NCBI RefSeq assembly: GCF_050920415.1
Contig: NZ_CP169309.1
DNA length: 64,000 nt
Reading direction: 5' to 3' (one strand)
Source: Escherichia coli
Lineage (GTDB): Bacteria; Pseudomonadota; Gammaproteobacteria; Enterobacterales; Enterobacteriaceae
This document shows positions 2,145 through 63,435 of the stretch, piece by piece. The first letter of the stretch is position 1. The number at the start of each line of letters is the position of its first letter. The notes beneath the pieces are model-generated. The model was not told the DNA's origin. It made no database searches and saw nothing but the letters and a program-made list of their open reading frames with translations. The position numbers and the translations under genes were made by a program.

Positions 2145-4931
2145 TTAGTGCGCCTGATCCCAGTTTTCGCCACTCCCCACTTCCACCAGCAACGGCACAT
2201 CCAGACGAGTACAATTCTCCATCAGTTGATGGATTTTCTTCGCTACCGCCTCAAGATCATCTTTATGAACTTCAAATACCAGTTCATCGTGTACCTGCAT
2301 AATCATACGCACACGCGGTTGCTCAGCTTGTAACCACGCATCAACGGCAATCATCGCTCGTTTGATAATGTCGGCGGCGGTTCCCTGCATTGGCGCGTTA
2401 ATGGCTGCACGTTCAGCCGCTGCACGACGAGCACCATTGCTGGATTTGATATCCGGCAGATACAGACGGCGTCCGTCCAGCGTTTCAACGTAGCCCTGCT
2501 CTTTCGCCTGAGCACGGGTGCGTTCCATATACTCCAGCACGCCAGGGTAGCGTTCGAAGTAAAGGTCCATGTACTTCTGCGCTTCTTTACGCGGAATGTT
2601 CAATTGTCGCGCCAGACCGAAAGCACTCATGCCATAAATCAGACCAAAGTTGATCGCTTTCGCGCTACGGCGTTGCTCGCTGGTGACGGTTTCCAGTGGC
2701 AAACCAAACACTTCTGCCGCCGTAGCCCGGTGGATATCTTTTCCTTCCGCGAATGCGGTCAGCAAGCCTTTGTCACGCGAGAGATGCGCCATAATGCGCA
2801 GTTCAATCTGCGAGTAGTCCGCCGAGACAATCACATAATCCTCTGGCGCAATAAACGCCTGGCGGATACGACGACCTTCTTCGTTACGCACCGGAATGTT
2901 TTGCAGGTTAGGATCGGTTGACGATAAACGTCCCGTTGCGGTTACTGCCTGGTGATAAGAGGTATGTACACGCCCGGTTTTCGGGTTGATCATCAGCGGC
3001 AGCTTGTCGGTGTAGGTCGATTTCAGCTTCGCCAGACCACGATACTCCAGAATCACTTTTGGCAACGGATAGTCCAGCGCCAGTTCTTCCAGTACCTCTT
3101 CCGACGTTGACGGCGCACCACCCGGCGTTTTCTTCAGCGGTTTAATGCCCTGTTTTTCAAACAGAATGGTTTGTAACTGCTTGGTGGAAGAAAGGTTAAA
3201 TTCTTCACCTGCAATTTCATGCGCTTTCTTTTCCAGCTCAGCCAGACGTAGAGTGAGCTCTTCAGAATGATTATGAAGCACTTTCGGATCGATCTTCACA
3301 CCGTTACGTTCAATGCGTGAAAGCACCGGCACCAAAGGCATTTCGATATTCTCGAAGACGTTCAACGGCCCTTTGTGTTTTTGCAGATCCGGCCACATTT
3401 TCAGATGCAACTGCAAGGTGACATCTGCATCTTCGGCGGCGTAACGTCCGGCCTCTTCGAGGGCAATCTGGTTAAAGGTCAGTTGATTTTTGCCTTTACC
3501 AGCAATCTCTTCAAAAGTGATGGTTTTGTGCTTCAACCAACGTTCCGCGAGGCTGTCCATATCGTGACGTCCGGCAACGCTATTGAGAATGTAGGACTCC
3601 AGCATGGTATCAAACGCAATCCCACGTAGTTCAATGCCGTAGTTCGCCAGAATACCGCGATCGTATTTCAGGTTTTGCCCGACCTTCAGCGCCTTTTCAT
3701 CTTCCAGCAGCGGTTTTAGCAACTCGAGTGCACGCTCGCGAGAGATTTGATCGGGCGCATCAAGATAATCATGAGCAACCGGAATATATGCCGCTACGCC
3801 TGGCTCGATAGCAAAAGAAAGCCCGACCAGGTTAGCAGAGATGTTATCAAGGCTGTCGGTTTCGGTATCAAATGCAAATACCGGCGCTTTTTCCAGCTTC
3901 GCAATCCACTCTTTCAGTGTTTCTTCATCAAGGATGGTGACGTAGTTGTCATAAGAAATCACCGTTGCCGTCACTTCTGGCGCTTCGTCTACAACACTGG
4001 TTTGCTGCGGCTTCGCGGCTGGTTTTTCCCCTTTGGCCTGTAGCCATTTTCCCGCTTCGACATCAGCAGTCCAGCGTTTGAACTCATACTTTTTGAACAG
4101 CCCTAACAACTCTTCTGCCGCCGGTTGCTGCACTTCCAGTTGTTCACAGGTCAGCTCCAGTTCAACGTCGGTTTTAATCGTCGCCAGCTGGTATGAGAGA
4201 TAAGCCACTTCTTTGTTTTGCTCGAGCTTCGCCGCCATTGTTTTCGCGCCACGGAAGCTTAGGCCAGCAATTTTTTCCGGCTCGGCATACAGCGTATCCA
4301 GCCCGCCAAGACCCTGCAGCAGTGCCTGCGCGGTTTTTTCACCAACGCCCGGTACGCCAGGAATGTTATCAGAGGAGTCCCCCATCAGCGCCAGGAAGTC
4401 GATGATCAGTTCTGGCGGTACGCCGTACTTATTCACCACCTCTTCCGGGCCGAGGATGGTATTCGTCATGGTATTGATAAGCGTAATATTTGGCGTCACC
4501 AGCTGCGCCATATCTTTATCGCCTGTGCTTATCAGCACCGGACGTCCGGCTTTTTCGGCTTCCCGCGCCAGAGTACCGATAACGTCGTCCGCTTCTACGC
4601 CAGAAACCGCCAGCAGCGGCAGTCCCATCGCTTTAACCATCGCGTGCAGGGGTTCGATTTGTGCTCGCAGATCGTCCGGCATTGGCGGGCGATGTGATTT
4701 GTAATGTTCAAACAGTTCATCACGAAAGGTTTTTCCCTTGGCGTCAAAGACCACCGCTGCATGCGTCGGTTTATATTGCATGATCAGACTGCGCAGCATG
4801 TTGAGGACACCATACATCGCACCGGTCGGCTCGCCTGCGCTGTTAGTCAGCGGGGGAAACGCGTGATATGCGCGATAAAGATAAGATGAACCATCTACAA
4901 GGATAAGTGGATTTTGGGGGATCTGAACCAT
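2145..4931 (-). CDS. polA: DNA polymerase I
   Basis: 928 aa ORF; 5'-3' exonuclease N-terminus, 3'-5' exonuclease and polymerase domains recognisable; length equals E. coli PolA. Confidence 0.97.
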
Positions 4932-11305: not shown

Positions 11306-14208
<2,903 letters not shown>

Positions 14209-14391
14209 TCACAACCCGAAGATGTTTCTTTCGATTCATCATCGTGTTGCGAAAATTTGAGAGACTCACGAACAACTTTCGTTGTTCAGTGTTTCAATTT
14301 TCAGCTTGATCCAGATTTTTAAAGAGCAAAACTTCGCAGTGAACCTTTGCAGGTACACTCTGAAGTATTTTTTATTTAATCACTACAGAGA

Positions 14392-14467
14392 TGGTGGAGC
14401 TATGCGGGATCGAACCGCAGACCTCCTGCGTGCAAAGCAGGCGCTCTCCCAGCTGAGCTATAGCCCC
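14392..14467 (-). tRNA. alaT: tRNA-Ala (anticodon UGC)
   Basis: Reverse complement GGGGCTATAGCTCAGCTGGGAGAGCGCCTGCTTTGCACGCAGGAGGTCTGCGGTTCGATCCCGCATAGCTCCACCA, an exact canonical 76 nt sequence. Confidence 0.95.
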
Positions 14468-14509
14468 ATAACATGTAGTTAAAACCTCTTCAAATTTGCG
14501 GTGCAAATT

Positions 14510-14585
14510 TGGTAGGCCTGAGTGGACTTGAACCACCGACCTCACCCTTATCAGGGGTGCGCTTAACCACCTGAGCTACAAGCCT
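14510..14585 (-). tRNA. ileT: tRNA-Ile (anticodon GAU), apparently 1 nt shorter than canonical in the D-arm
   Basis: Reverse complement AGGCTTGTAGCTCAGGTGGTTAAGCGCACCCCTGATAAGGGTGAGGTCGGTGGTTCAAGTCCACTCAGGCCTACCA; canonical as I recall has GGTTAGAGCGC. Confidence 0.85.
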
Positions 14586-14653
14586 GTAGAGGTTTTACTG
14601 CTCATTTTCATCAGACAATCTGTGTGAGCACTGCAAAGCACAGTTCTTTAAGG

Positions 14654-16190
<1,537 letters not shown>

Positions 16191-24116: not shown

Positions 24117-25600
<1,484 letters not shown>

Positions 25601-30175: not shown

Positions 30176-30682
30176 TCACTCGACGAAGGGGGAAGGTGCA
30201 GCGGTTTTCGGTTCAGCGTCCGCAGCAGGTTTTACCACCGGCTCTGGCGTGGTTTCTGGCTTCTGTTCCGGCGAACTGGCCTGCGTTTGTGCAGCGGCAG
30301 GCGTTACGCCTTCATGCGCAGCTTCATTATCTTTCACCACCGGGTTATGGATGGTGTGCGCTTCATCGCTCGCCTTTTCAGGATCGTTTGCAACGTAGGA
30401 ACGCTTCATCGACTCCGCGGCCTGGCGTAGTTCATCCATCGACGCTTTCAGTTCGGGCGTCAGGTTAGTGAGGCTCGCCTTTTCAACCTTTTTCAGGCTG
30501 TCCTGAAACTCCTGGAGTTTTAACTCCTGGGTCAGTTCGTTCTGCACCGTTGTCGCCAGTGAACGCAACGCGCGAATCCAGCCAGCTACCGTTTTTACCG
30601 CCACAGGCAGTCGTTGCGGCCCCAGAACGACGAGGCCGATGATGAACACCAATAGCAGTTCGCTAAAACCGATATCAAACAC
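30176..30682 (-). CDS. tatB: Twin-arginine translocase subunit TatB (C-terminal tail differs from K-12 as I recall it)
   Basis: Begins [26 protein letters not shown]; ends ...APSPFVE instead of the remembered ...APSPSSSDKP. Confidence 0.9.
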
Positions 30683-42459: not shown

Positions 42460-43272
42460 ATGGCAACAACACAACAATCTGGATTTGCACCTGCTGCATC
42501 ACCTCTCGCTTCGACCATCGTTCAGACCCCGGATGACGCGATTGTAGCAGGCATCACCTCTATCCCTTCACAAGGGGATAACATGCCTGCTTACCATGCC
42601 AGACCAAAGCAGAGCGATGGCCTACTACCAGTGGTCATTGTAGTGCAGGAAATTTTTGGCGTGCATGAACATATCCGCGATATTTGTCGCCGTCTGGCAC
42701 TGGAGGGGTATCTGGCTATCGCACCTGAACTTTACTTCCGCGAAGGCGATCCGAATGATTTTGCCGATATCCCTACGCTGCTTAGCGGTCTGGTAGCAAA
42801 AGTGCCTGACTCGCAAGTACTGGCCGATCTCGATCATGTCGCCAGTTGGGCGTCACGCAACGGCGGCGATGTTCATCGCTTAATGATCACCGGATTTTGC
42901 TGGGGTGGGCGCATCACCTGGCTGTATGCTGCGCATAACCCGCAACTGAAAGCGGCGGTGGCATGGTACGGCAAACTGACAGGCGATAAGTCGCTGAATT
43001 CACCGAAACAACCTGTTGATATCGCAACCGATCTTAACGCGCCGGTTCTCGGCTTGTATGGTGGTCAGGATAACAGCATTCCGCAGGAGAGCGTTGAAAC
43101 CATGCGCCAGGCGCTGCGGGCTGCTAATGCGAAAGCAGAGATTATCGTCTACCCGGATGCCGGGCATGCATTCAACGCCGATTATCGCCCGAGCTATCAT
43201 GCCGAATCTGCGAAAGATGGCTGGCAGCGAATGCTGGAGTGGTTTAAGCGGTATGGTGGGAAACGGAATTAG
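42460..43272 (+). CDS. dlhH: Dienelactone hydrolase-family protein (start at MATTQQSG)
   Basis: About 270 aa alpha/beta hydrolase with a GFCWGG nucleophile motif; position next to udp as for K-12 ysgA. Confidence 0.85.
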   Translation: MATTQQSGFAPAASPLASTIVQTPDDAIVAGITSIPSQGDNMPAYHARPKQSDGLLPVVIVVQEIFGVHEHIRDICRRLALEGYLAIAPELYFREGDPNDFADIPTLLSGLVAKVPDSQVLADLDHVASWASRNGGDVHRLMITGFCWGGRITWLYAAHNPQLKAAVAWYGKLTGDKSLNSPKQPVDIATDLNAPVLGLYGGQDNSIPQESVETMRQALRAANAKAEIIVYPDAGHAFNADYRPSYHAESAKDGWQRMLEWFKRYGGKRN

Positions 43273-43663
43273 TTTCCTCTTAGTCTATATTTGAGATGGT
43301 GAGTGAACGAATGCGTTTTGCTGCCATCTCTGTCCCCCAAAAAATAATCAGTATGAATTGATTGGAGAGCACGACTCCGCTATTTGACCTTAAGAAAGTC
43401 GGCAAGTCATAGTCATAAATGAGTCTCTTCACTGGCAGACACCTTAAAGATTTACCATCAACTCCCATTCTCAAACAAACATTAATTATTATCAACACAT
43501 TCACATTAATTATAAATTATCTCAGACCTTCCTGATAAAAAGATATTAAAGTGAAACATTTTGTTTTTCACATTTTAGTTCATCCCTATTAGGCGTAAAT
43601 AAAGGTAAAAAATAACAATACTATTTTTCTTTCACAAAAGAATTAACAAAAGGTTTTTCAAGG

Positions 43664-44062
43664 ATGAGTGATATTATTTACCTGACCATAACCGGAGAAC
43701 AACACGGATGTATTTCCTCTCGTTGTGGAACGAGCACATCAATAGGTAATCGCTGGCAGATTGGTCATGAAGATGAAATCTTCGCGTTCTCGCTCTCTAA
43801 TAGTATTACGAATACAGGAAAAGGGTCACATTTGCATGGCCTTAGTTTCTGTAAGTTGATTGACAAAAGCTCCCCGTTACTTATTAACGCTATTAACAAT
43901 AACGAGCAGTTGTTCATGGAGTTTGACTTCTATCGGATCAATAGATTTGGTCGATGGGAGAAATATTACAACATTCAACTCCGCGGCGCGCTCTTATCAG
44001 CAATCAATCACCTGTTTACGGAGAACAATCTGGATACAGAAACCATCACTGTCAGTTATTAA
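43664..44062 (+). CDS. Hcp-like type VI secretion tube protein domain (132 aa, shorter than typical Hcp)
   Basis: IYLTITGEQHGCISSRCGTSTSIGNRWQIGHEDEIFAF, IDKSSPLLINAI, FYRINRFG and ETITVSY follow the Hcp1-family pattern; RBS before the ATG; AT-rich context. Confidence 0.6.
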   Translation: MSDIIYLTITGEQHGCISSRCGTSTSIGNRWQIGHEDEIFAFSLSNSITNTGKGSHLHGLSFCKLIDKSSPLLINAINNNEQLFMEFDFYRINRFGRWEKYYNIQLRGALLSAINHLFTENNLDTETITVSY

Positions 44063-44107
44063 TATATACTCTCCAGGCATCTGATTGCTAATACTGAATT
44101 TAGTTAT

Positions 44108-44812
44108 TTGGCATTTCCCGATAACTACAATCGTCTGTTTATACCACGGCCAAAAACTAAAGATGATAATGGCCTCAAAACACTCAATAGTAAAGCTGTT
44201 GGCAGACTGCTTGCTGCTGGCGGCATATACAATGGGAATATCGAAGGATTCAGGGAAACAGCAAACAAGTTGGGGGGAGATGCACCTGCTGGTTACGATC
44301 AAGTTATGGATAACAAAGGGTTACTCATCGCTGGTGCTTCAATAGTTGCTGGAGCAGTTCTGGGGAGAATGAGACTCCCTGATTTGGAATCACTTGAGCA
44401 TTTCGGAGCCAGAGGAGCAGTATCAGGAAGACCATTTAATCCCGACCTTGCCGGTGGTCCAATAGAAAATCTGACGACAGATGGCGTAACAATCAACAGG
44501 GAAGGTATCGCTATTGTTGAAAAACACATAGCCAGATTTGGTCATGACCCTGTAAATGAAGTGATGATCAATAGACTGAAAGACATTGAGAAAGGAAAAA
44601 TCCCCCCAGAACAAGTAGATCTTAACTTCTATACTCATGAATGTCGGGAATATCAGCGTTACTGTAATCTTGGTTGGGAAACAGGACAACCTGATGGTGA
44701 CGCAGGCTATGCACTCTGGAATCATACGCATACTGCTACTCTAGAAGATTATAAACTTAAGGGAGAACTTAATGACTTATACCACCAGGATGCACTTGAC
44801 TATGATAACTGA
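44108..44812 (+). CDS. Putative toxin/effector domain protein of unknown class
   Basis: 234 codon ORF in the same frame as the Hcp-like ORF, open from the TAA at 44060-44062; no ATG or clear RBS near its 5' end; glycine-zipper-like GLLIAGASIVAGAVLG segment. Confidence 0.4.
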   Translation: MAFPDNYNRLFIPRPKTKDDNGLKTLNSKAVGRLLAAGGIYNGNIEGFRETANKLGGDAPAGYDQVMDNKGLLIAGASIVAGAVLGRMRLPDLESLEHFGARGAVSGRPFNPDLAGGPIENLTTDGVTINREGIAIVEKHIARFGHDPVNEVMINRLKDIEKGKIPPEQVDLNFYTHECREYQRYCNLGWETGQPDGDAGYALWNHTHTATLEDYKLKGELNDLYHQDALDYDN

Positions 44813-45047
44813 AACTGAAATTAACGTACTGAAAGTTATGGCTGAGAAAGATATAAACTGGAACTGGATGAATCTCGATCGCACACTATCTATAAGGCAA
44901 ATTCCAGGATTCGGTAATGTTGTTAACATTGTTAACAAATTAGCTAACGAGGGTTTGGTTATTATTGAGGATAGCGGACATAAGTCTATGCCTCACTACC
45001 ACGTTACTGAAAAGGGATACAATCTCGTGAAAAGTGAGAATAAATAA
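44802..45047 (+). CDS. Small winged-helix-like protein, candidate immunity protein or regulator
   Basis: ATG at 44802 overlaps the upstream stop (ATGATAACTGA); the ~81 aa product has an HTH-like LSIRQIPGFGNVVNIVNKLANEGLV segment. Confidence 0.4.
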   Translation: MITETEINVLKVMAEKDINWNWMNLDRTLSIRQIPGFGNVVNIVNKLANEGLVIIEDSGHKSMPHYHVTEKGYNLVKSENK

Positions 45048-45195
45048 CGTAGCGTTGATTACTGAACAAATCGCTCAGGATTATATTTTGCGAAAAAAAT
45101 GATTCGGTTATTTCTGTGTCTGAACGGCCGCAGATAGCAAAATGGCTTCCGGTGATGGAAGCCATCAGATTATTGGCAAAGTGCGTGTTGTTCAT

Positions 45196-45226
45196 GCCGG
45201 ATGCGGCGTGAACGCCTTATCTGGCC
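45196..45226. repeat. REP element
   Basis: gccggatgcggcgtgaacgccttatctggcc. Confidence 0.7.
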
Positions 45227-45333
45227 AACTAAATCTTGAAAATTCAATAAATTGAATAAATTATGTAGGCCTGGTATCAGGCAGTTTCGCCTCTTTCATC
45301 GTACTGCAATTTACAGTGACTCGTTAATACTCA

Positions 45334-52269: not shown

Positions 52270-52890
52270 TCAACGCGAAATAATCAAATGAATACCAAAT
52301 CCGGCAAATAACGCCCCGGCAAAACCATCAATCCACTTCGCCAGACGTTGATAACCACGGCGCATTTGCGGCAGGGCAAACAGGCTGGCAACGACGGTAA
52401 ACCACGCCAGTGTTTCGACAATAATCAACGCGAAAATGCCCCAGCGCTCAGTGGTGCCGACGTTATCGCCGACAAACAGCGAGAATACCGAACCAAAGTA
52501 GATAATCGCTTTCGGATTGGCGAGATTGGTCAGTAAGCCTTTCAGGAAACTGCGCCCGCTTTTTGCCAGTTCTACCTGTGGCGCAGGCGCAGAAACGACC
52601 TCTTTTTTCAGTGCGCTACGCAGCATCTGATAACCCATCCAGCAGAGATACAGGCCACCGCCCACCATAATCAGCGTATGCAGCCAGGCCATTTTTTCGA
52701 TAATTAAATGCAGGCCAAGCAACGCGATCCCTGCCCAGACCATTACGCCGCAGGTAATGCCCAGCACGCCCATCATCGCTTCTTTGCGCGAACGGCTAAC
52801 GGCAGTCTGGGAGACAAAAAAGAAATCGGGACCGGGGCTCATAAGCGCCACGATATGAACCATGGCGACGGTGAGGAATAACATCAACAT
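52270..52890 (-). CDS. rhtC: Threonine efflux protein RhtC (LysE family)
   Basis: 206 aa LysE-family protein convergent with rhtB. Confidence 0.9.
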   Translation of the reverse strand: MLMLFLTVAMVHIVALMSPGPDFFFVSQTAVSRSRKEAMMGVLGITCGVMVWAGIALLGLHLIIEKMAWLHTLIMVGGGLYLCWMGYQMLRSALKKEVVSAPAPQVELAKSGRSFLKGLLTNLANPKAIIYFGSVFSLFVGDNVGTTERWGIFALIIVETLAWFTVVASLFALPQMRRGYQRLAKWIDGFAGALFAGFGIHLIISR

Positions 52891-52953
52891 ACAATTGACT
52901 CGCGGGGAAATCGTTTACGGAGTCTTCATCCTGGCACTTTTTTATGCTGCTGA

Positions 52954-54783
52954 CTACTCTTCGTCATCGCCATCGACATGCGCACGGATAAGTGCCATAA
53001 ACGGTTTGCCAAAGCGTTCCAGCTTGCGCATCCCAACGCCGTTAACGCTGAGCATTTCGCTGGCGGTGATTGGCATCTGTTCCGCCATCTCAATCAAGGT
53101 CGCGTCGTTAAACACCACATACGGCGGGACATTACTTTCATCAGCAATGGATTTACGCAGTTTGCGTAATTTGGCGAACAGTTTGCGATCGTAATTGCCA
53201 CCGAACGATTTCTGCATCGCTTTCGGTTTGAGCGCCACAATACGCGGCACGGCAAGTTGTAAAGAGGATTCGCCGCGCAACACAGGCCGTGCGGCTTCTG
53301 TCAGTTGTAATGCCGAATGCTGGGCGATATTTTGCGTCACAAGGCCGAGATGAATCAGCTGGCGGATCACGCTGACCCAATGTTCATGGCTTTTATCACG
53401 GCCCATGCCATAGACTTTCAGTTTGTCATGACCATAGTCGCGGATACGCTGATTATTAGCACCGCGAATCACTTCCACCACATAACCCATACCAAAACGC
53501 TGATTCACCCGACCAATGGTGGAAAGGGCAATCTGTGCATCGGTTGAACCATCGTACTGTTTCGGCGGATCGAGGCAGATATCGCAGTTCCCGCACGGCT
53601 CCTGCCGCCCTTCGCCAAAATAGTTCAGCAGCACCAGACGACGGCAAGTTTGTGCTTCGGCAAACGCGCCCATCGCATTGAGTTTATGACGTTCGATATC
53701 CTGCAACTGCCCTTGCGGCTTCTCTTCAAGGCAACGGCGCAACCACGCCATATCCGCTGGATCGTAAAACAGCATCGCTTCCGCGGGCAGGCCATCACGC
53801 CCGGCGCGTCCGGTTTCCTGATAATAGGATTCGATATTGCGCGGAATATCAAAGTGAACCACGAAGCGGACGTTAGGCTTGTTGATGCCCATGCCGAACG
53901 CTACCGTCGCCACCACAATTTGCAGGTCATCGCGCTGGAATTTTTCCTGCACGTCCGCACGGACATCGTTTTCAAGCCCGGCGTGATAAGCCGCTGCGCT
54001 GATACCCTTGCTTTGCAGACGCGCGGCGGTGTCTTCTACTTTCGCACGACTATTACAGTAAATAATCCCCGACTTACCGCGTTGTTCCTGCACGTAGCGC
54101 ATCAACTGATCGAGCGGTTTGAATTTCTCCATCAGCATGTAGCGAATGTTCGGGCGATCAAAACTGCTGATTTGAATCAGCGGATCGTTCAGCCCCAGCA
54201 GGCGCACGATATCCTGCCGCGTGGTGTCGTCGGCGGTGGCGGTTAGCGCCATAAACGGCAGAGTAGGAAAACGCTGACGCAGCTGACCGAGGGCAGCGTA
54301 TTCCGGGCGGAAATCGTGGCCCCATTGGGAGATACAGTGCGCTTCATCAACGGCTAATAACACTGGATTCCAGTGCGCCAGATGCTCAAGGAAGTTATCC
54401 AGCATCAGGCGTTCCGGCGCGATATACAGCAGGCGGATTTGCCCGGTACGGCAGCCTGTCATTACTTCAAGCTGCTGCTCGCGGGTTTGCGTCGAGTTAA
54501 GACACGCCGCCGCCACGCCGTTGGCTTGCAGTTGATCTACCTGATCTTTCATCAGTGAAATCAGTGGTGAAACAACCACGGTAAGGCCGTTTAGCAATAA
54601 GGCAGGAATTTGATAGCAAAGGGATTTTCCGCCACCAGTGGGCATGACGACCAGGCAATCGCGACCGGAAAGTACGGTGTCAATAATCTCTTCCTGCCCG
54701 GGGCGAAACTGTTGGTAGCCAAAGGTTTCTTGTAAAACCTGTTTAGCCCCGGACTCCAGATTCAACACTTCCGCCTGCGCCAC
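52954..54783 (-). CDS. recQ: ATP-dependent DNA helicase RecQ
   Basis: 609 aa; DEAH helicase motifs, zinc-binding region and HRDC C-terminus. Confidence 0.95.
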
Positions 54784-54801
54784 ATTAACCCCGATTGCCT
54801 G

Positions 54802-54832
54802 AAATAAAAACAGGCGCTATTTTCAGCGCCTG
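54802..54832 (-). terminator. Intrinsic terminator downstream of pldA
   Basis: Hairpin caggcgctattttcagcgcctg, followed on the minus strand by TTTTTATTT. Confidence 0.5.
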
Positions 54833-54914
54833 CGCGAGAAACTGCAATGCTTTTAGTCTCTGAGAGGGTAATCCTGGATGCTGGATTCCAGTTTTGCCTT
54901 TCAATCAACTCACA

Positions 54915-55784
54915 TTAGAACAAGTCGTTCAGCATAACCCCCACACCCACACGGGTCTGGTTAAAGTTATAGTCTATGAGCGATTCGCCATAACCGCTGT
55001 AAATCTGGGTATAAAGGCGCACATGCCTGGTGATCGGGTAACTTAAGCCTAACTCCGCACCACCGTAACCGGTGTTCCAGTTGTACTGTCCTTTCGCACT
55101 CAGCACCGCATCACCCAGGTGATAGCCGATTTTAAGCTGGTAGTAACCCATATATTTGGTGATATCTGGGTTATCGTCAGTATTCCCCACCACATACCAC
55201 GGCTTCACCTCTACCAGCCAGTTACCGTTTTCTGCCATCAGACGGGTATAAAGGCGGTTCCAGCTGCGGGAAGTCGGGTCTGAACGCCCGTTAGAGTCGT
55301 GGTTATAACCCATCTCCACATCGCGCAGCGTCCAGCCAGCAAAGCGGTAATCGGTGGCAAAGCCAAGGAACAATTGCGGTTCGTAGTTGGTTTCACGAAA
55401 CGGTGAAGACTCTTCGCTGTTGGACAGTTGCCACCAGGATTTTTGCGTGTAAGAAGCCCCCAACACCGAGTTTGGCCCCAATATTCCGCGCCACAGCGGA
55501 AATGCCAGGCTCAACTGGAATTTCACTTCATCCTTACGCGCATTTTCCGCCCAGTCGTAACTGGCAATCGCTTCTTTATTCAGATCGCTGGTTTGGGTGT
55601 AGATGAGGTAGTTGGTGTCATAAGGATAGAGCGTGAAAGGATTGTCATGCTCCTGCAGCATATTCGCGATAATACTGCCACGCACCGCAGGCGTGTCATG
55701 CACCTCTTTCACCGTTGCCTCTTGCGCATACACTGCCATTGGCAACATAAACACCGGCAACAACCAGCCCTGCAGAGTCCGCAT
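54915..55784 (-). CDS. pldA: Outer membrane phospholipase A
   Basis: 289 aa with signal peptide and beta-barrel OMPLA sequence. Confidence 0.95.
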   Translation of the reverse strand: MRTLQGWLLPVFMLPMAVYAQEATVKEVHDTPAVRGSIIANMLQEHDNPFTLYPYDTNYLIYTQTSDLNKEAIASYDWAENARKDEVKFQLSLAFPLWRGILGPNSVLGASYTQKSWWQLSNSEESSPFRETNYEPQLFLGFATDYRFAGWTLRDVEMGYNHDSNGRSDPTSRSWNRLYTRLMAENGNWLVEVKPWYVVGNTDDNPDITKYMGYYQLKIGYHLGDAVLSAKGQYNWNTGYGGAELGLSYPITRHVRLYTQIYSGYGESLIDYNFNQTRVGVGVMLNDLF

Positions 55785-55948
55785 CGGTCGTGTTCTCCGT
55801 AACGAATTATTGATTAGATGAATATTTTTCTGCGGGCTATTTTACATACTTAACTCCTTTGCCGTTAGTTATCCCTTCCTAAAGTAGAAACCAACAAAAA
55901 AGAAGCATAAAATCAACATTTCATTAACCAATGAAGTGTAAGGATGAT

Positions 55949-56416
55949 ATGTCTGCCGTACTGACCGCTGAACAAGCCCTGAAATTAGTGGGTGAGATGT
56001 TTGTTTATCACATGCCATTTAACCGTGCGTTAGGGATGGAACTGGAGCGTTACGAAAAAGAGTTCGCACAGCTGGCCTTTAAAAATCAGCCAATGATGGT
56101 GGGTAACTGGGCGCAAAGCATTTTGCACGGCGGGGTCATTGCGTCGGCGCTGGATGTCGCCGCAGGTCTGGTGTGCGTGGGAAGTACCTTAACCCGCCAC
56201 GAAACCATCAGTGAAGATGAACTACGCCAGCGGCTATCGCGGATGGGGACCATTGATCTTCGCGTCGATTATCTGCGCCCAGGCAGGGGTGAGCGTTTTA
56301 CTGCTACCAGTAGTCTGTTGCGTGCGGGCAATAAAGTCGCCGTCGCCCGCGTTGAATTACACAATGAAGAACAGCTTTATATAGCCAGTGCCACCGCCAC
56401 CTATATGGTAGGTTGA
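55949..56416 (+). CDS. yigI: Hotdog-fold acyl-CoA thioesterase YigI (start at MSAVLTAEQ)
   Basis: 155 aa PaaI-like thioesterase fold. Confidence 0.8.
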
Positions 56417-56467
56417 TAACGTAAAAGCAGGTAAACTGCTGTTACCAATTAAAAATGAGTATTCCCG

Positions 56468-57358
56468 ATGGATGCAAAACAAACGCGGCAGGGCGTATTA
56501 CTCGCTCTTGCCGCTTATTTTATTTGGGGTATTGCGCCAGCGTACTTCAAGCTGATTTACTACGTGCCCGCCGATGAGATCCTGACGCATCGCGTGATCT
56601 GGTCGTTTTTCTTTATGGTGGTGCTGATGAGCATCTGCCGCCAGTGGTCTTATTTAAAAACGCTAATTCAGACGCCACAGAAAATTTTTATGCTGGCCGT
56701 CTCTGCCGTACTGATTGGCGGCAACTGGCTACTGTTTATCTGGGCGGTGAACAATCACCATATGCTGGAAGCGAGCCTCGGTTATTTTATTAACCCACTG
56801 GTGAACATTGTGCTGGGGATGATTTTCCTCGGCGAGCGATTCCGCCGGATGCAATGGCTGGCGGTGATTCTGGCGATATGTGGTGTATTGGTCCAGCTCT
56901 GGACTTTTGGTTCGCTGCCAATCATCGCGCTGGGGCTGGCGTTTAGTTTTGCCTTCTACGGCCTGGTACGCAAGAAAATTGCCGTTGAAGCGCAAACCGG
57001 CATGTTAATCGAAACCATGTGGCTGCTGCCCGTGGCGGCGATTTACCTGTTTGCTATTGCCGACAGCTCAACCAGCCATATGGGGCAAAACCCGATGTCG
57101 CTTAATTTACTGCTGATCGCCGCCGGTATTGTCACCACCGTTCCACTGTTGTGTTTTACTGCGGCTGCGACACGCCTGCGTCTCTCAACGTTAGGCTTTT
57201 TTCAGTACATTGGCCCGACGCTGATGTTCCTGCTGGCTGTGACGTTTTATGGTGAAAAACCGGGTGCCGATAAGATGGTGACCTTCGCCTTTATTTGGGT
57301 GGCGCTGGCAATTTTTGTGATGGATGCGATTTATACGCAGCGTAGAACGTCCAAATAA
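56468..57358 (+). CDS. rarD: EamA-family transporter RarD
   Basis: 296 aa ten-TM DMT-superfamily protein. Confidence 0.9.
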   Translation: MDAKQTRQGVLLALAAYFIWGIAPAYFKLIYYVPADEILTHRVIWSFFFMVVLMSICRQWSYLKTLIQTPQKIFMLAVSAVLIGGNWLLFIWAVNNHHMLEASLGYFINPLVNIVLGMIFLGERFRRMQWLAVILAICGVLVQLWTFGSLPIIALGLAFSFAFYGLVRKKIAVEAQTGMLIETMWLLPVAAIYLFAIADSSTSHMGQNPMSLNLLLIAAGIVTTVPLLCFTAAATRLRLSTLGFFQYIGPTLMFLLAVTFYGEKPGADKMVTFAFIWVALAIFVMDAIYTQRRTSK

Positions 57359-57668
57359 AAAATAAATATATTCTGAAAAAATATGCCGACTCTTGCATGA
57401 GAGTGGGCATATTGCCATGCTGACAGGAGACTCACATAAGGAAAGGCAGAATTTCCAGACGTCGTTGTATATTTTCATTTGCTTTAATAAATTTCATTTT
57501 TGGTAAATTCAGCATTATGTTATTAGCGATGAGCAAGACCAATCATTAACCAAGTTCTCTTCAGAATGTAATGAAAAATGTGAAGTGCATTTCTTTTTTA
57601 AAATTTTTTTACCCTATTATTTCTTATCAAATTAACATTGCCCTTAATTATAAGAAAGGAGAATATAA

Positions 57669-58517
57669 ATGAACAACATATTAGGCTCATCAATTAATAT
57701 GCCCTGTACACTTTTCGAAACTATTACTTTATTCGATGATTTTTCTGCTGATGATATGCAGTATGGGGATATGGAAGAACAAGATTTTCTCTCACTCGGC
57801 TTAAGCGACATCTCTGCAAAAGTTGATCCTTACCGCCTCATTAAATACCATTTTCCTGGGCCGAATTCTACTTATGGTGCTTTTAGTGTTCCAACTTCTG
57901 GAACAAAAATATCACAAAGTGAATGTATTGATATTTTATTTGCAGAAATGAAAGATCTGGCAAAAATGTTTTCCTTTTTTGGACAATACAAAACACTCAT
58001 CCAGGATCTGATTGATCATTTTAGATATGGAAATGGCAACAGTTTCCATAGCCAGGAATTGAACTTATCTTTTCATGAACGAATAAACAAATATGATTAT
58101 AATAGCCCAATACGTGTAATCAAAGAATGTATCGAAAATGATATTTCTTCAACACCTACGATAGGATACCGGCCTCTTCTCCTACAAAAGATTAAGACCG
58201 AATTACTTTCATCAAGACTAAATAAATTCAATGATTTTAAAGATAATTTTAATGGCCTGGGAATCAGCATTCATGATATCTCAGCTCAAAAAATATCTCT
58301 TTTAAATTTTCAAAAATATCCTATGGGCTGGAGCGCTACCATTCATTTCATAGCACAAGACCACTTTGGTTTGGATGTGACTGATATAAAAAACAAGATT
58401 TACAACAAGTATAGATTTTTTCGCATATGGTTCTTTTTACAACGGCATAAAGACTTTGCTTTCAAACCTTTTTTTACCAATTTTAACACTATCGAAAGAA
58501 TCGAAAATTATCTATGA
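57669..58517 (+). CDS. Hypothetical protein (282 aa), AT-rich accessory gene
   Basis: ORF preceded by AGGAGA RBS; low-GC codon usage unlike neighbours; no family recognised. Confidence 0.45.
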   Translation: MNNILGSSINMPCTLFETITLFDDFSADDMQYGDMEEQDFLSLGLSDISAKVDPYRLIKYHFPGPNSTYGAFSVPTSGTKISQSECIDILFAEMKDLAKMFSFFGQYKTLIQDLIDHFRYGNGNSFHSQELNLSFHERINKYDYNSPIRVIKECIENDISSTPTIGYRPLLLQKIKTELLSSRLNKFNDFKDNFNGLGISIHDISAQKISLLNFQKYPMGWSATIHFIAQDHFGLDVTDIKNKIYNKYRFFRIWFFLQRHKDFAFKPFFTNFNTIERIENYL

Positions 58518-58942
58518 AAAGCAAACTCCAGAAAATTATATTATATTTATTTCTTATATGCTGCATCTATAATTTATGGACATTGCGTCCTGTACAGATT
58601 TTGTATACATACTCTGATGCTGGCAATTCAGTCTTTCTGGTCGTTGATCATCTGCCATGGACTGATAGCGATAAAATAAATTGGTATCTGAAGCATCAGG
58701 ATGAAATTAAAAGTCAAAATCCCCTACCAGAAGGTAGTTGGCATACCTGGTATGTTATTGATATCGGTAATGGCTTCACTGACTATAAAAAATATATCGA
58801 AGGGCTGTATGAAGATCTCTACTGTTTCCCGACGATTAAGAGCAATGATAATTGCATCGTAAAAAACTATTTAATGGTTATTAATGAATATCCTTACCGT
58901 AATACTCATTTTTTATTGCTGATAACAATGAGTATCAACTAA
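58514..58942 (+). CDS. Hypothetical small protein with N-terminal signal-anchor (142 aa)
   Basis: ATG overlaps the upstream stop (ATGA); hydrophobic N-terminus KIILYLFLICCIYNLW. Confidence 0.45.
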   Translation: MKSKLQKIILYLFLICCIYNLWTLRPVQILYTYSDAGNSVFLVVDHLPWTDSDKINWYLKHQDEIKSQNPLPEGSWHTWYVIDIGNGFTDYKKYIEGLYEDLYCFPTIKSNDNCIVKNYLMVINEYPYRNTHFLLLITMSIN

Positions 58943-59045
58943 CCCAGGAAAATAAGATAGAGCGAGTGTTCAACCCGCATGACTTTGAAAAAGACAATTT
59001 TCAGCAATAAGCCGGATAAAGAACAATCTTTACCCGGCATTTATA

Positions 59046-59996
59046 TTACAACCAGTTCTTCCGCTTAAAGTAAAGATACGGTGCCAGGCCCGCGAGGATC
59101 ATAAAGATAATCGCGCCTGGGTAGCCGAAGCTCCACTTCAGTTCCGGCATAAACTCAAAGTTCATCCCGTAGCTGGAAGCGACCAGCGTCGGTGGCAGGA
59201 ACACCACGGATACCACCGAGAAGATTTTAATGATGCGGTTCTGCTCGATATTGATAAAGCCCATCGCCGCCTGCATCAGGAAGTTCACCTTCTGGAACAG
59301 GGATTCGTTATGCGGCAGCAGGGATTCGATATCTCGCAGGATTTCACGCGCCTGCTCCAGTTGCCCACCCGGTAAGCGTGCTTTACGTACCAGGAAGTTG
59401 AGCGCGCGCTGGGTATCCATCAGACACAGGCGAACTTTCCAGCCGATATCTTCCAGTTCCGCCAGCGTGGAGAGCGCCTCGTCGTACTCATCGCCCTGAT
59501 GCCCTTCCATAATCACCCGGCTCAACTGCTCCAGGTCGCTGTAGATATTTTCAATTTCATCTGCCAGCTGTTCGATTTTGGTTTCGAACAGATCCAACAG
59601 CAGCTCGTAGGCGTTACCGTCCACCATTGACTGGCTACGGGCGCGCATACGATACAGACGGAATGCAGGCAGTTCACGCTCACGCAGAGTAAACAGACGA
59701 CCATCACGGATGGTAAATGCCACAGTGGAGTTACCGGCGTGATCTTCCGCATCTTCAAAGAAGAAGAAGGAGTGAATATGCAGGCCGTCATCGTCTTCAA
59801 AGAAACGCGCTGATGCTTCGATGTCTTCCAGTTCCGGGCGTGTTGCCAGGCTCTGGCCAAGTTCAGATTGTACGCGCAGTCGCTCGTCGTCGTCCGGTTC
59901 GACAAGATCAATCCATACTGCATTTACAAGGGGTTGTGACTCTTCGACTTCCAGCCGGGTCAGTCGGTTATTTTCCAGTTGAAATGCGCTCAGCAT
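59046..59996 (-). CDS. corA: Magnesium/cobalt transporter CorA (start at [10 protein letters not shown])
   Basis: 316 aa with YGMNF motif and two C-terminal TM helices. Confidence 0.95.
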
Positions 59997-60365
59997 GACC
60001 GGGACTCCCAATGCTTAAAATATCGGACAGTTCGGTGGGCACACAGAAACAAATTGGGTTTCAGACCATTAAACAGCCTGACTCAGCGCGACGGGAAAAA
60101 TTGAGGTCGCTGACAACCGCTAAGGCTATCAGCAAAAAGGGATAGCCTTAGGAGTTGATCCTGGATGACAGGATAATGAGCCAGTATCTACTGGGTGTGT
60201 CCAAGGCGAATGTCCTCTTAGAGTGATCGTGCGCGCATGTTACGCCAGCAAAATTTTGCCGTCAACACGCAACAGAACACCACAGAACAATAGTTGAACT
60301 TCGCGCTTTTTGGTACTCGTCAAGGTCGCTAACAGGATAAAAAAATCCCACATCCAGGACCTATA

Positions 60366-61130
60366 ATGGCGCATCGGCTACTCATTGGTAAAGGAATGAT
60401 CACCTTGAATCTCAAACGGATTTTTCTCGCCCTCACCTTACTTCCCTTGTTTGCTGTTGCCGCTGATGATTGCGCACTATCAGATCCGACACTGACCATA
60501 CAGGCGTATACCGTTAATCCTCAAACAGAGCGGGTGAAAATGTACTGGCAAAAAGCCAATGGCGAAGCGTGGGAAACGTTACATGCGCTGCTGACGGATA
60601 TTAATAGTCAGGGTCAGGTGCAAATGGCGATGAACGGCAGCATCTATGATGAAAGCTATGCGCCGCTCGGTTTGTACATCGAAAACGGTCAGCAGAAGGT
60701 GGCGTTAAATCTCGCTTCAGGTGAAGGGAATTTCTTTATCCGTCCTGGCGGTGTGTTTTATGTCGCGGGAGATAAAGTCGGCATCGTTCGTCTGGATGCC
60801 TTTAAAACCAGTAAAGAGATTCAGTTCGCGGTGCAGTCAGGGCCAATGTTGATGGAAAACGGCGTCATTAATCCGCGTATTCATCCCAACGTCGCCTCAC
60901 GCAAAATTCGTAACGGTGTTGGGATTAATAAACAAGGGAACGCCGTGTTTTTGTTGAGCCAGCAGGTGACAAATTTTTATGATTTTGCCTGTTATGCCAA
61001 AACGAAACTGAACGTTGAGCAACTGCTTTATCTTGATGGCACGATTTCACATATGTATGTGAAAGGCGGGGCAATCCCGTGGCAACGCTATCCTTTTGTT
61101 ACCATGATTTCCGTCGAGCAGAAAAGTTAA
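60366..61130 (+). CDS. yigE: DUF2233-family periplasmic protein YigE
   Basis: 254 aa with signal peptide; conserved position between corA and uvrD. Confidence 0.8.
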   Translation: MAHRLLIGKGMITLNLKRIFLALTLLPLFAVAADDCALSDPTLTIQAYTVNPQTERVKMYWQKANGEAWETLHALLTDINSQGQVQMAMNGSIYDESYAPLGLYIENGQQKVALNLASGEGNFFIRPGGVFYVAGDKVGIVRLDAFKTSKEIQFAVQSGPMLMENGVINPRIHPNVASRKIRNGVGINKQGNAVFLLSQQVTNFYDFACYAKTKLNVEQLLYLDGTISHMYVKGGAIPWQRYPFVTMISVEQKS

Positions 61131-61165
61131 AACAACCGTTTTGTGTCACTGAATATGGTGCAGAT

Positions 61166-61269
61166 GCCGGATGCGGCGCAAACGCCTTACCCGGCCTACA
61201 TGACATTGCAATTTATTGAATCTACATGATTTTGTAGGCCGGATAAGGTGCGCAGCACCGCATCCGGCA
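61166..61269. repeat. RIP-type BIME: inverted REP pair with putative IHF-site spacer
   Basis: gccggatgcggcgcaaacgccttacccggcctac ... tgcaatttattgaatctacatg ... taggccggataaggtgcgcagcaccgcatccggca. Confidence 0.65.
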
Positions 61270-61272
61270 ACG

Positions 61273-63435
61273 TTATACCGTCTCCAGCCGGGCGTAAGCC
61301 GCCACCAGCCATTTAATACCCTGGCCCTGGAATGCCACCTGCAAACGGCTATGCTCACCGCTGCCTTCCATATTGACGATGGTGCCTTCACCAAACTTGG
61401 CGTGGCGTACGCGCTGGCCGAGCTTGTAGCCGCTGTCGTTCTCGACCATCGGCGTACCCATCCGTTGATGGCTGACCGGGCGGCTTACCGTAGCGCGTAA
61501 ACGCACCTCTTCCACACACTCTTCCGGCAGCTCACCAATAAAGCGCGACGGGCGATGGTAAACCTCTTTGCCATACAGACGGCGGGTTTCCGCGTAGGTC
61601 AGTGTCAGTTTCTGCATCGCGCGGGTTACGCCAACGTAGGCCAGACGGCGTTCTTCTTCCAGACGCCCGCCTTCATCCAGCGACATCTGGCTTGGGAACA
61701 TGCCCTCTTCCATACCAACAATAAACACCTGCGGGAATTCCAGACCTTTCGCCGAGTGTAGCGTCATCAGCTGTACCGCATCCTGCCAGGTATCCGCCTG
61801 CCCTTCACCTGCTTCCAGTGCCGCATGGGAGAGGAACGCCTGCAGCGGCATTAAATCTTCGTCTTCTTCGTTGTAGCTGAACTGGCGCGTTGCCGTCACC
61901 AGTTCCTCTAAGTTTTCGATACGCGTCTGGCCTTTTTCGCCCTTCTCCTGCTCGTACATGGTGCGCAGGCCGGAGTCTTTAATTACCCGGTCAGTCTGTA
62001 CATGCAGCGGCATATCGGCAGTTTCTTGCGCTAAGGCGTCGATCAGTTCCATAAACCGTTGCAAAGCGCTGGCAGCACGCCCGGCGAGCGCTTTTTCCTG
62101 CAATAATTCGCGGCACGCCTGCCAGAGTGTTAACTGGCGATCGCGCGATGTCTGACGTACCACGTCCAGCGTCCGGTCACCAATACCCCGCGTTGGCGTA
62201 TTCACCACGCGCTCAAAGGCCGCGTCGTCGTTACGGTTGGCAATCAGGCGCAGATACGAGAGCGCATCTTTGATTTCCTGGCGTTCGAAGAAGCGCATCC
62301 CGCCATAAATACGGTACGGCATACTGGCTTGTAATAACGCCTCTTCCAGCACGCGCGACTGGGCGTTGCTGCGATAGAGAATGGCGCACTCGGCGAGCGC
62401 CCCGCCCTTGTCCTGCCAGGTCTTGATGCGGTTAACCACAAAACGCGCTTCGTCGAGTTCGTTAAAAGCGCAATAGAGGGAAATCGGCTCACCGTCCGCG
62501 CCATCGGTCCACAACTTTTTACCCAAACGCCCGTTGTTGTTTTCAATCAGGGCGTTCGCCGCGCTCAGGATATTGCTGGTAGAGCGGTAGTTTTGCTCCA
62601 GACGGATAGTTTCGGCACCGGGGAAATCATTGAGGAAACGCTGAATATTCTCTACCTGCGCCCCACGCCAGCCGTAGATTGACTGGTCGTCATCGCCAAC
62701 AATCATCACTTTGCCAGTATCGCCCGCCAGCAGGCGGATCCACGCGTACTGAATGTTGTTGGTATCCTGGAATTCGTCCACCAGGATATTGGTAAAACGT
62801 TCGCGGTAGTGTTGCAGGATATGCGGCTTGTTAAGCCACAGTTCGTGGGCGCGTAGCAGTAGTTCAGCGAAGTCCACCAGGCCCGCGCGGTCACACGCTT
62901 CCTGATACGCCTGGTACACCTTCTGCCAGGTCTGCTCCACCGGATTACCGTAGCTTTGAATATGATGCGGACGCAGCCCTTCATCTTTCTGGCTGTTGAT
63001 GTACCACATTGCCTGGCGCGGCGGCCACTGCTTCTCGTCGAGGTTCATGGCTTTGATCAGACGCTTAAGCAGGCGCAGCTGGTCTTCGCTGTCGAGGATC
63101 TGGAAATCCTGCGGCAGGTTGGCGTCCATATGGTGCGCACGCAGCAGACGGTGTGCCAGCCCGTGGAAAGTGCCGACCCACATACCGCCCTGGCTGGTAC
63201 CCATCAGTTGCCCGATACGATGGCGCATTTCCGCCGCCGCTTTGTTGGTAAATGTCACCGCCATAATCGAGTACGGCGAGCAGTTTTCCACGCTCATCAG
63301 CCAGGCGATACGATGCACCAGTACGCGCGTCTTACCACTGCCCGCGCCCGCCAGCACCAAAAGGTTGCTGCGTGGCGCGGCCACCGCTTCGCGCTGTTTG
63401 TCATTAAGGCTGTCGAGCAGGTAAGAAACGTCCAT
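61273..63435 (-). CDS. uvrD: DNA helicase II UvrD (start at MDVSYLLDSL; track ORF has a 62 codon in-frame upstream extension)
   Basis: 720 aa SF1 helicase with Walker A GAGSGKT. Confidence 0.97.
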   Translation of the reverse strand: MDVSYLLDSLNDKQREAVAAPRSNLLVLAGAGSGKTRVLVHRIAWLMSVENCSPYSIMAVTFTNKAAAEMRHRIGQLMGTSQGGMWVGTFHGLAHRLLRAHHMDANLPQDFQILDSEDQLRLLKRLIKAMNLDEKQWPPRQAMWYINSQKDEGLRPHHIQSYGNPVEQTWQKVYQAYQEACDRAGLVDFAELLLRAHELWLNKPHILQHYRERFTNILVDEFQDTNNIQYAWIRLLAGDTGKVMIVGDDDQSIYGWRGAQVENIQRFLNDFPGAETIRLEQNYRSTSNILSAANALIENNNGRLGKKLWTDGADGEPISLYCAFNELDEARFVVNRIKTWQDKGGALAECAILYRSNAQSRVLEEALLQASMPYRIYGGMRFFERQEIKDALSYLRLIANRNDDAAFERVVNTPTRGIGDRTLDVVRQTSRDRQLTLWQACRELLQEKALAGRAASALQRFMELIDALAQETADMPLHVQTDRVIKDSGLRTMYEQEKGEKGQTRIENLEELVTATRQFSYNEEDEDLMPLQAFLSHAALEAGEGQADTWQDAVQLMTLHSAKGLEFPQVFIVGMEEGMFPSQMSLDEGGRLEEERRLAYVGVTRAMQKLTLTYAETRRLYGKEVYHRPSRFIGELPEECVEEVRLRATVSRPVSHQRMGTPMVENDSGYKLGQRVRHAKFGEGTIVNMEGSGEHSRLQVAFQGQGIKWLVAAYARLETV

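Follow-up and report, generated by a model that had tools for sequence, protein, structure and literature searches.

The interval between rarD and corA on Escherichia coli contig NZ_CP169309.1, which we analyzed within a stretch of 64,000 nucleotides (the window), carries an AT-rich module of two overlapping genes that is probably an orphan effector-immunity pair, bicistronic and of the DUF3289/DUF943 family. The first gene (57669-58517, + strand, ATG start) encodes the putative effector, a DUF3289 protein of 282 amino acids (aa). The second (58514-58942, + strand, ATG start) encodes its putative immunity protein, a DUF943 protein that is read in the window as 142 aa, the last 8 of which are aberrant. 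A sequence-only reading of this DNA had described the two open reading frames (ORFs) and their ATGA overlap at 58514-58517 correctly and had thought of a toxin and its immunity partner; both protein families, and the links of their homologues to type VI secretion systems (T6SS), now support that idea. The pair is an uncharacterized member of a known, recently characterized family and no novel type of system. That family, whose toxin and immunity proteins serve bacteria in contact-dependent warfare, already has a name and a partial characterization; the structure of a homologous complex is available, and papers on relatives describe their biology.

The effector, for which the sequence-only reading had seen no recognizable family, in fact matches Pfam DUF3289 (PF11692) with an E-value of 7.9e-83, its residues 10-278 aligning to positions 2-270 of the 272 in the model, and NCBIfam TIGR03034, the 'YPO3983 family', with 395.9 bits against a cut-off of 156.45 and over all model positions (1-274 of 274). 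RefSeq gives the same family names, DUF3289/YPO3983 and DUF943, to these genes in E. coli, and no Pfam family besides DUF3289 matches the effector, even at E <= 10. Its N-terminus is acidic, and the protein has neither a signal peptide nor a hydrophobic segment. Since the hidden Markov model match spans residues 8-280, the entire length is toxin domain and leaves no room for a separate delivery domain, so that the effector would have to ride non-covalently on Hcp, VgrG or an adaptor. A model built from an alignment of 59 relatives, which were collected from a representative set of 1.84 billion proteins, was predicted with a mean local confidence (pLDDT) of 90.6 and a global score (pTM) of 0.87. 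Conserved in the family are the motif D231-H232-F233-G234-L235-D236-x-x-D239 and residues W254, L257, Q258 and P267.

The small partner belongs to Pfam DUF943 (PF06092), the truncated ORF matching positions 2-133 of the 151 in the model with an E-value of 1.4e-23. The N-terminal anchor proposed for it by the sequence-only reading is borne out by the hydropathy profile, in which the top 19-residue window begins at residue 8, by a Lys-rich N-terminus, and by an AlphaFold2 model with a transmembrane helix at residues 2-24 (pLDDT 87.9 for the intact 165-aa protein). Together with the two invariant cysteines, C104 and C114, this single helix behind a Lys-rich N-terminus leads us to expect a periplasm-facing, disulfide-bonded domain. 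No Shine-Dalgarno sequence comparable to the AAGGAG of the effector gene precedes the second ATG, which fits translational coupling of the DUF943 gene to the effector gene.

Fold comparison of the predicted models places both proteins beside BtpeA/BtpiA, a T6SS effector-immunity complex of Bacteroides fragilis (PDB 9jdi for the C-terminal domain, 9jg8/9jg9 for the full-length effector; Li W. et al., Cell Host Microbe 2025, 33:1901, PMID 41072405). The effector model shares the fold of the toxin domain of BtpeA, a proven T6SS effector, and the adjoining downstream gene is predicted to encode the cognate, BtpiA-type immunity fold; this second relationship was found by fold comparison only, and a sequence search of the PDB with the immunity protein gave no match. 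Both effectors are annotated as DUF3289 and share the DHFGLDxxD, W..LQ and KPF motifs. Overall sequence identity amounts to just 21% between the effectors and 10% between the immunity proteins. Unlike the E. coli protein, which is a bare 282-aa toxin domain, BtpeA has 608 aa and an N-terminal region that engages adaptor and spike. The two pairs also come from different phyla and different T6SS types, and the orphan pair of E. coli is located a long way from any T6SS cluster. Three papers that cite the description of BtpeA do not state its enzymatic activity.

The pairing itself is conserved. A DUF3289 gene is directly followed by a DUF943 gene in all five loci examined from other genera, at differing chromosomal sites, and a survey of Klebsiella reports the same linkage (PMC12469244). 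Salmonella carries the pair at the same rarD-corA site (houtenae, arizonae, salamae and other subspecies, 63% amino-acid identity), and three more sites with the pair occur in metagenomic and other assemblies, one of them near an Rhs-type gene. Among 20 longer relatives, DUF3289 is fused C-terminal to PAAR in five and to Hcp/TssD in two, and in others it is joined to cell-wall modules (Peptidase_M23 in three, PG_binding_1 in two, Peptidase_M14 and SH3_3 in one each). The two module genes are under purifying selection, with ratios of nonsynonymous to synonymous substitution (dN/dS) of 0.11-0.22, compared with 0.00-0.06 for flanking genes. As a recurring ordered pair under purifying selection, they are more than chance ORFs. 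Some relatives are arranged in arrays: an Enterobacter locus (L008 6499-9319, Logan SRR11948719) has two tandem DUF3289-DUF943 pairs beside unrelated genes, and on another contig (L012 2012-4045) two DUF943 genes come after a single DUF3289 gene; about 1.2 kb downstream of the second DUF943 gene is a gene of the Rhs type (DUF6531/RHS). Such tandem arrays are typical of effector-immunity diversification and of orphan immunity genes.

Published work on relatives shows what such pairs can do. In Yersinia pseudotuberculosis IP32881, the PAAR-DUF3289 protein T6EC1 is encoded in a T6SS operon and is toxic only when sent to the periplasm, where it rounds cells and is neutralized by a DUF943 partner, T6IC1, of the same predicted topology (Geller et al. 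2024, PMC11148199). The E. coli pair has the same Pfam families in the same gene order, likewise in Enterobacterales, and its DUF943 protein, like T6IC1, is predicted to have a short cytoplasmic N-terminus, one transmembrane helix and a periplasmic domain. T6EC1, in contrast to the standalone orphan effector described here, is a specialized effector with a covalent PAAR fusion, set in a T6SS operon. Orphan effectors of the PIX class, too, include some whose toxin domain is DUF3289. An orphan DUF3289 protein was found in the T6SS-dependent secretome of Aeromonas jandaei, and competition assays showed it to form a true effector-immunity pair with its downstream gene (Fridman et al. 2025, PMC12135965). 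This arrangement, compared by description for WP_042032936.1 of A. jandaei DSM 7311, resembles the E. coli one in being an orphan DUF3289 gene with a downstream membrane immunity gene; unlike the E. coli DUF943 protein, the A. jandaei immunity protein has 95 aa, a signal peptide and three helices that span the membrane, and lacks DUF943.

On this basis we propose the following mechanism. The effector would be made in the cytoplasm without a signal peptide and would most likely be carried by a T6SS, as non-covalent cargo, into the periplasm of neighboring Gram-negative cells, where it may harm cell-wall synthesis. The translationally coupled DUF943 protein would be anchored in the inner membrane by its one N-terminal helix and expose a periplasmic domain, probably with a disulfide bond, that would bind and block effector arriving from sister cells. 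A colicin-M-like attack on lipid-linked peptidoglycan precursors has been proposed. The colicin M family (ColM, PaeM, syringacin M, pectocins M1 and M2) comprises lipid II-cleaving phosphoesterase bacteriocins, and ColM is countered by the immunity protein Cmi. The E. coli pair would share with colicin M a toxin that acts in the periplasm and a membrane-anchored, periplasm-facing immunity protein (both predicted here), and for one DUF3289 homologue the literature describes a cell-wall phenotype. However, the colicin M signature DxYD(x5)HR is absent from the effector, whose motif is D-H-F-G-L-D-x-x-D; the effector has no domains for FhuA/TonB-dependent reception and translocation, its partner is no Cmi-type immunity protein, and an hhalign comparison of the 59-sequence effector profile with ColM (sequence checked against PDB 2xmx) returned a probability of 0.08. 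The basis for a colicin M assignment is weak: we consider with moderate confidence that the effector works like a periplasmic cell-wall-precursor toxin, and we refrain from counting it as a colicin M.

The two genes differ in their state in this strain. The nearest complete genome, NZ_CP169399 (strain MFDS1022581), differs from the window by one base over the 1687-nucleotide module: a run of six T residues in the window (58909-58914, + strand) has seven in NZ_CP169399 and in the other intact alleles. The effector ORF is identical in the two genomes, and the immunity gene of NZ_CP169399 is intact, encoding a 165-aa DUF943 protein that ends at the equivalent of window position 59010. In the window this intact frame would correspond to 58514-59010 (+ strand), with its TAA at 59008-59010. 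The 142-aa ORF listed by the sequence-only reading therefore exists, and its length is due to a frameshift in a 165-aa gene. Truncation follows residue 134, so the DUF943 domain is incomplete at its C-terminal end in the window: residues 135-165 are lost, including the conserved stretch EYQLTxExKIE with its near-invariant Y141. In the AlphaFold2 model of the intact protein, the lost part holds the well-ordered beta strands 139-143 and 149-152, and strand 131-135 is disrupted as well. The 3' end of this allele is carried by 751 complete E. coli genomes, of which 718 match the T7 form exactly and three the T6 form.

The one-base deletion may have occurred in the strain or may be an artifact of sequencing through a homopolymer. 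If it is real, immunity is probably impaired. Two further observations bear on this point. The window and NZ_CP169399 differ by about ten indels of 1-2 bases in the 23S and 16S rRNA genes (rRNA operon 11716-15825), and at 24649 by one G in a G-run of an IS621-family transposase gene, one already labeled frameshifted in RefSeq. These differences suggest indel-type assembly errors in one or the other record.

Four points weigh against the proposed mechanism. The neighbors of the module are rarD and corA, and no T6SS structural gene adjoins it; the effector, being DUF3289 over its entire length, has no recognizable delivery domain; the nearest genome has one hcp-like locus, a pseudogene, in a blastn search that would miss a divergent hcp; and the immunity gene is frameshifted.

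One alternative is that the module no longer functions in this strain and is a remnant in decay, with a true immunity pseudogene, possibly no matching T6SS, and an effector that is silent or being lost. The extent of the truncation agrees with this, as do the "frameshifted" label that the annotation pipeline PGAP gives to the same T6 variant in APEC O2-211, one of the three T6 genomes, the internal stop in the nearby Hcp-toxin gene of the window, and the lack of a second hcp-like locus in the nearest genome within the reach of the same blastn search. Yet the effector ORF is 100% identical to its counterpart beside an intact immunity gene, the sole difference is one homopolymer base of the kind that is a classic sequencing error, with other single-base indels present, mostly in the rRNA operon, and purifying selection acts across the family. 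We regard a remnant as unlikely.

A second alternative joins two claims: that a bare YPO3983-type DUF3289 protein is no conventional T6SS cargo in E. coli, being loaded or exported in another way or acting without a T6SS, and that the T7 tract is a real, recurrent switch that yields toxin-positive, immunity-defective cells. It draws on the occurrence of T6 in at least four lineages (the window and three other genomes) and would accord with the nearest complete genome of the lineage, in which no second hcp-like gene is seen by blastn; taken together, the two claims seem decidedly improbable.

Independence from the T6SS may also be considered by itself, with the toxin leaving the cell by lysis, in vesicles or through another secretion system, or serving as an envelope-directed addiction module. 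The orphan locus, the missing delivery domain and the hcp-like pseudogene found by blastn in the nearest genome would all be compatible with this, and in four of the five loci from other genera standalone YPO3983-type genes likewise lie amid housekeeping genes. Against it stand the fifth of these loci (L012) with its nearby Rhs-type gene, the fusion of homologues to PAAR and Hcp, the T6SS dependence of the orphan Aeromonas homologue (PMC12135965), and the effector itself, which has no signal peptide and none of the receptor-binding or translocation domains of the colicin M kind; we hold such a route to be very unlikely. An anti-phage defence system, which the sequence-only reading had also entertained, or a classical cytoplasmic type II toxin-antitoxin pair would agree with the overlapping two-gene architecture, the AT-rich composition and the variable locus, but is hardly credible, as no PADLOC-DB family matches effector or partner at E <= 0.01, the partner is a predicted membrane-anchored periplasmic protein with conserved cysteines, the toxicity of a published homologue is confined to the periplasm (PMC11148199), and both proteins are, by their models, structural homologues of a T6SS effector-immunity complex.

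As the sequence-only reading had noted, the module is visibly richer in A+T than its surroundings: G+C is 0.30-0.35 over 57400-59000 and 0.47-0.57 in the flanks (about 32% versus about 52%), and G+C at third codon positions is 0.29 and 0.35 in the two module genes and 0.55-0.63 in rarD, corA, pldA and yigI. Its statement that K-12 has two small genes, yigF and yigG, here was also right, as seen in MC4100, where yigG-yigF lies between rarD and corA. Neither module protein is a yigG or yigF orthologue or a member of a housekeeping family. The replacement that it suspected has left a trace in the window, a remnant of the yigG 5' coding region (57442-57501, + strand, 60 nucleotides, about codons 10-29) that was identified by alignment with MC4100 and strain 1504D004. 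A 38-nucleotide deletion just upstream of this remnant took away the yigG start codon. The remnant joins the module leader within 57486-57502, where homology to module-type E. coli sequence starts, and in a blastn comparison window positions 57451-57502 correspond to 3131-3182 of comparison locus L003. Judged from these alignments, 57442-57501 marks the left scar of the yigG-yigF replacement.

Other strains show other arrangements. In strain 1504D004 the order is yigG-yigF, a 147-nucleotide duplicate of the corA 3' end (corA'), and the module. In the second of two E. coli module alleles, which are about 12% apart in DNA, corA' lies immediately upstream of the module (3910-4056 of L002, NZ_CP149565; 3838-3984 of L013, O157:H7, NZ_CP066759). 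The fragment is 92-95% identical to the real corA and is probably the footprint of the original insertion; its position beside the module in 1504D004 and O157:H7 suggests that the module came with a piece of donor corA and that later deletions gave the arrangement of the window. Between the window and O157:H7, amino-acid identity is 84.8% for the effector and 90.8% for the immunity protein.

Carriage of the module, counted where at least 80% of the query was covered, extends to 2626 of 5426 complete E. coli genomes, among them enteropathogenic E. coli E2348/69, Nissle 1917 and O157:H7, and it is chromosomal in all but one place. Relative to E2348/69, module and corA (57359-60358) are 98-99.8% identical, whereas the flanks (52359-57358 and 60359-62858) reach only 91-97% and pldA (54859-55858) is most divergent at 91-92%. 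This patch of high identity centered on the module implies that the allele moved between lineages by homologous recombination, and it indicates a recombination patch in a lineage otherwise distant from B2 strains. That lineage is rare, with only two complete genomes at an identity of at least 99% over 22 kb. An old AT-rich accessory islet would thus have replaced yigG-yigF beside corA and spread among E. coli lineages through homologous recombination, in the present case with an intact effector gene and, through the one-base deletion in the T7 run, an immunity gene without its conserved C-terminal part. Module versus yigGF next to corA is a long-lived polymorphism.

The module is bounded by rarD (56468-57358, + strand) on the left and corA (59046-59996, - strand) on the right, the latter convergent with the DUF943 gene. 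An AT-rich leader (57502-57668, + strand) precedes the effector gene and contains the Shine-Dalgarno sequence AAGGAG at 57656-57661, 7 nucleotides before the effector ATG. Between the convergent DUF943 and corA genes lies a GC-rich hairpin (59011-59038, - strand) with a 12-pair stem, 6 GC pairs and a T-rich tail; on the corA strand it resembles a terminator, which probably works in both directions. A sigma-70 promoter scan found no more sites in total than in shuffled sequence and none on the + strand upstream of 57669. An Rfam scan of 57000-59400 gave chance-level matches only, below gathering scores, and a repeat search returned nothing but short, AT-rich repeats of the kind expected by chance; the module is not flanked by inverted or direct repeats.

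A second AT-rich islet lies 13 kb away between ysgA and metE (43250-45330, G+C 0.30-0.46 versus about 0.54) and holds an Hcp-toxin fusion with an internal stop (43664-44812), the only other T6SS-related gene in the window. Its Hcp/TssD N-terminal part (43664-44062; TIGR03344, E 2e-33) ends at this stop. It is followed by a 234-aa ORF (44108-44812) without a Pfam match, whose counterpart in the nearest genome RefSeq annotates as a fragment of an HNH endonuclease, and by an overlapping 91-aa ORF (44772-45047), a candidate immunity gene. The islet looks like a degraded orphan Hcp-toxin effector-immunity islet. We count its presence in the window among the observations that favor the effector-immunity reading of the rarD-corA pair. 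In the nearest genome an IS2 is inserted at the point equivalent to window positions 44217-44220; the window lacks this IS2. Elsewhere, tatB (30176-30682, - strand) is read as a 168-aa ORF ending in AAPSPFVE; RefSeq calls it 'frameshifted' in the nearest genome, to which the window is identical there, and the change is limited to the extreme C-terminus.

Several features of the rarD-corA module go beyond routine annotation: a frameshifted immunity gene beside an intact toxin, a toxin without delivery domain or T6SS linkage, the weak footing of a colicin M comparison, and the polymorphism between module and yigGF. The module would be a convenient test case for how a T6SS may load a toxin that lacks a delivery domain. 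Its presence in about half of the complete E. coli genomes, where K-12 has yigG-yigF, would furthermore make this locus a common, unstudied determinant of inter-strain killing.
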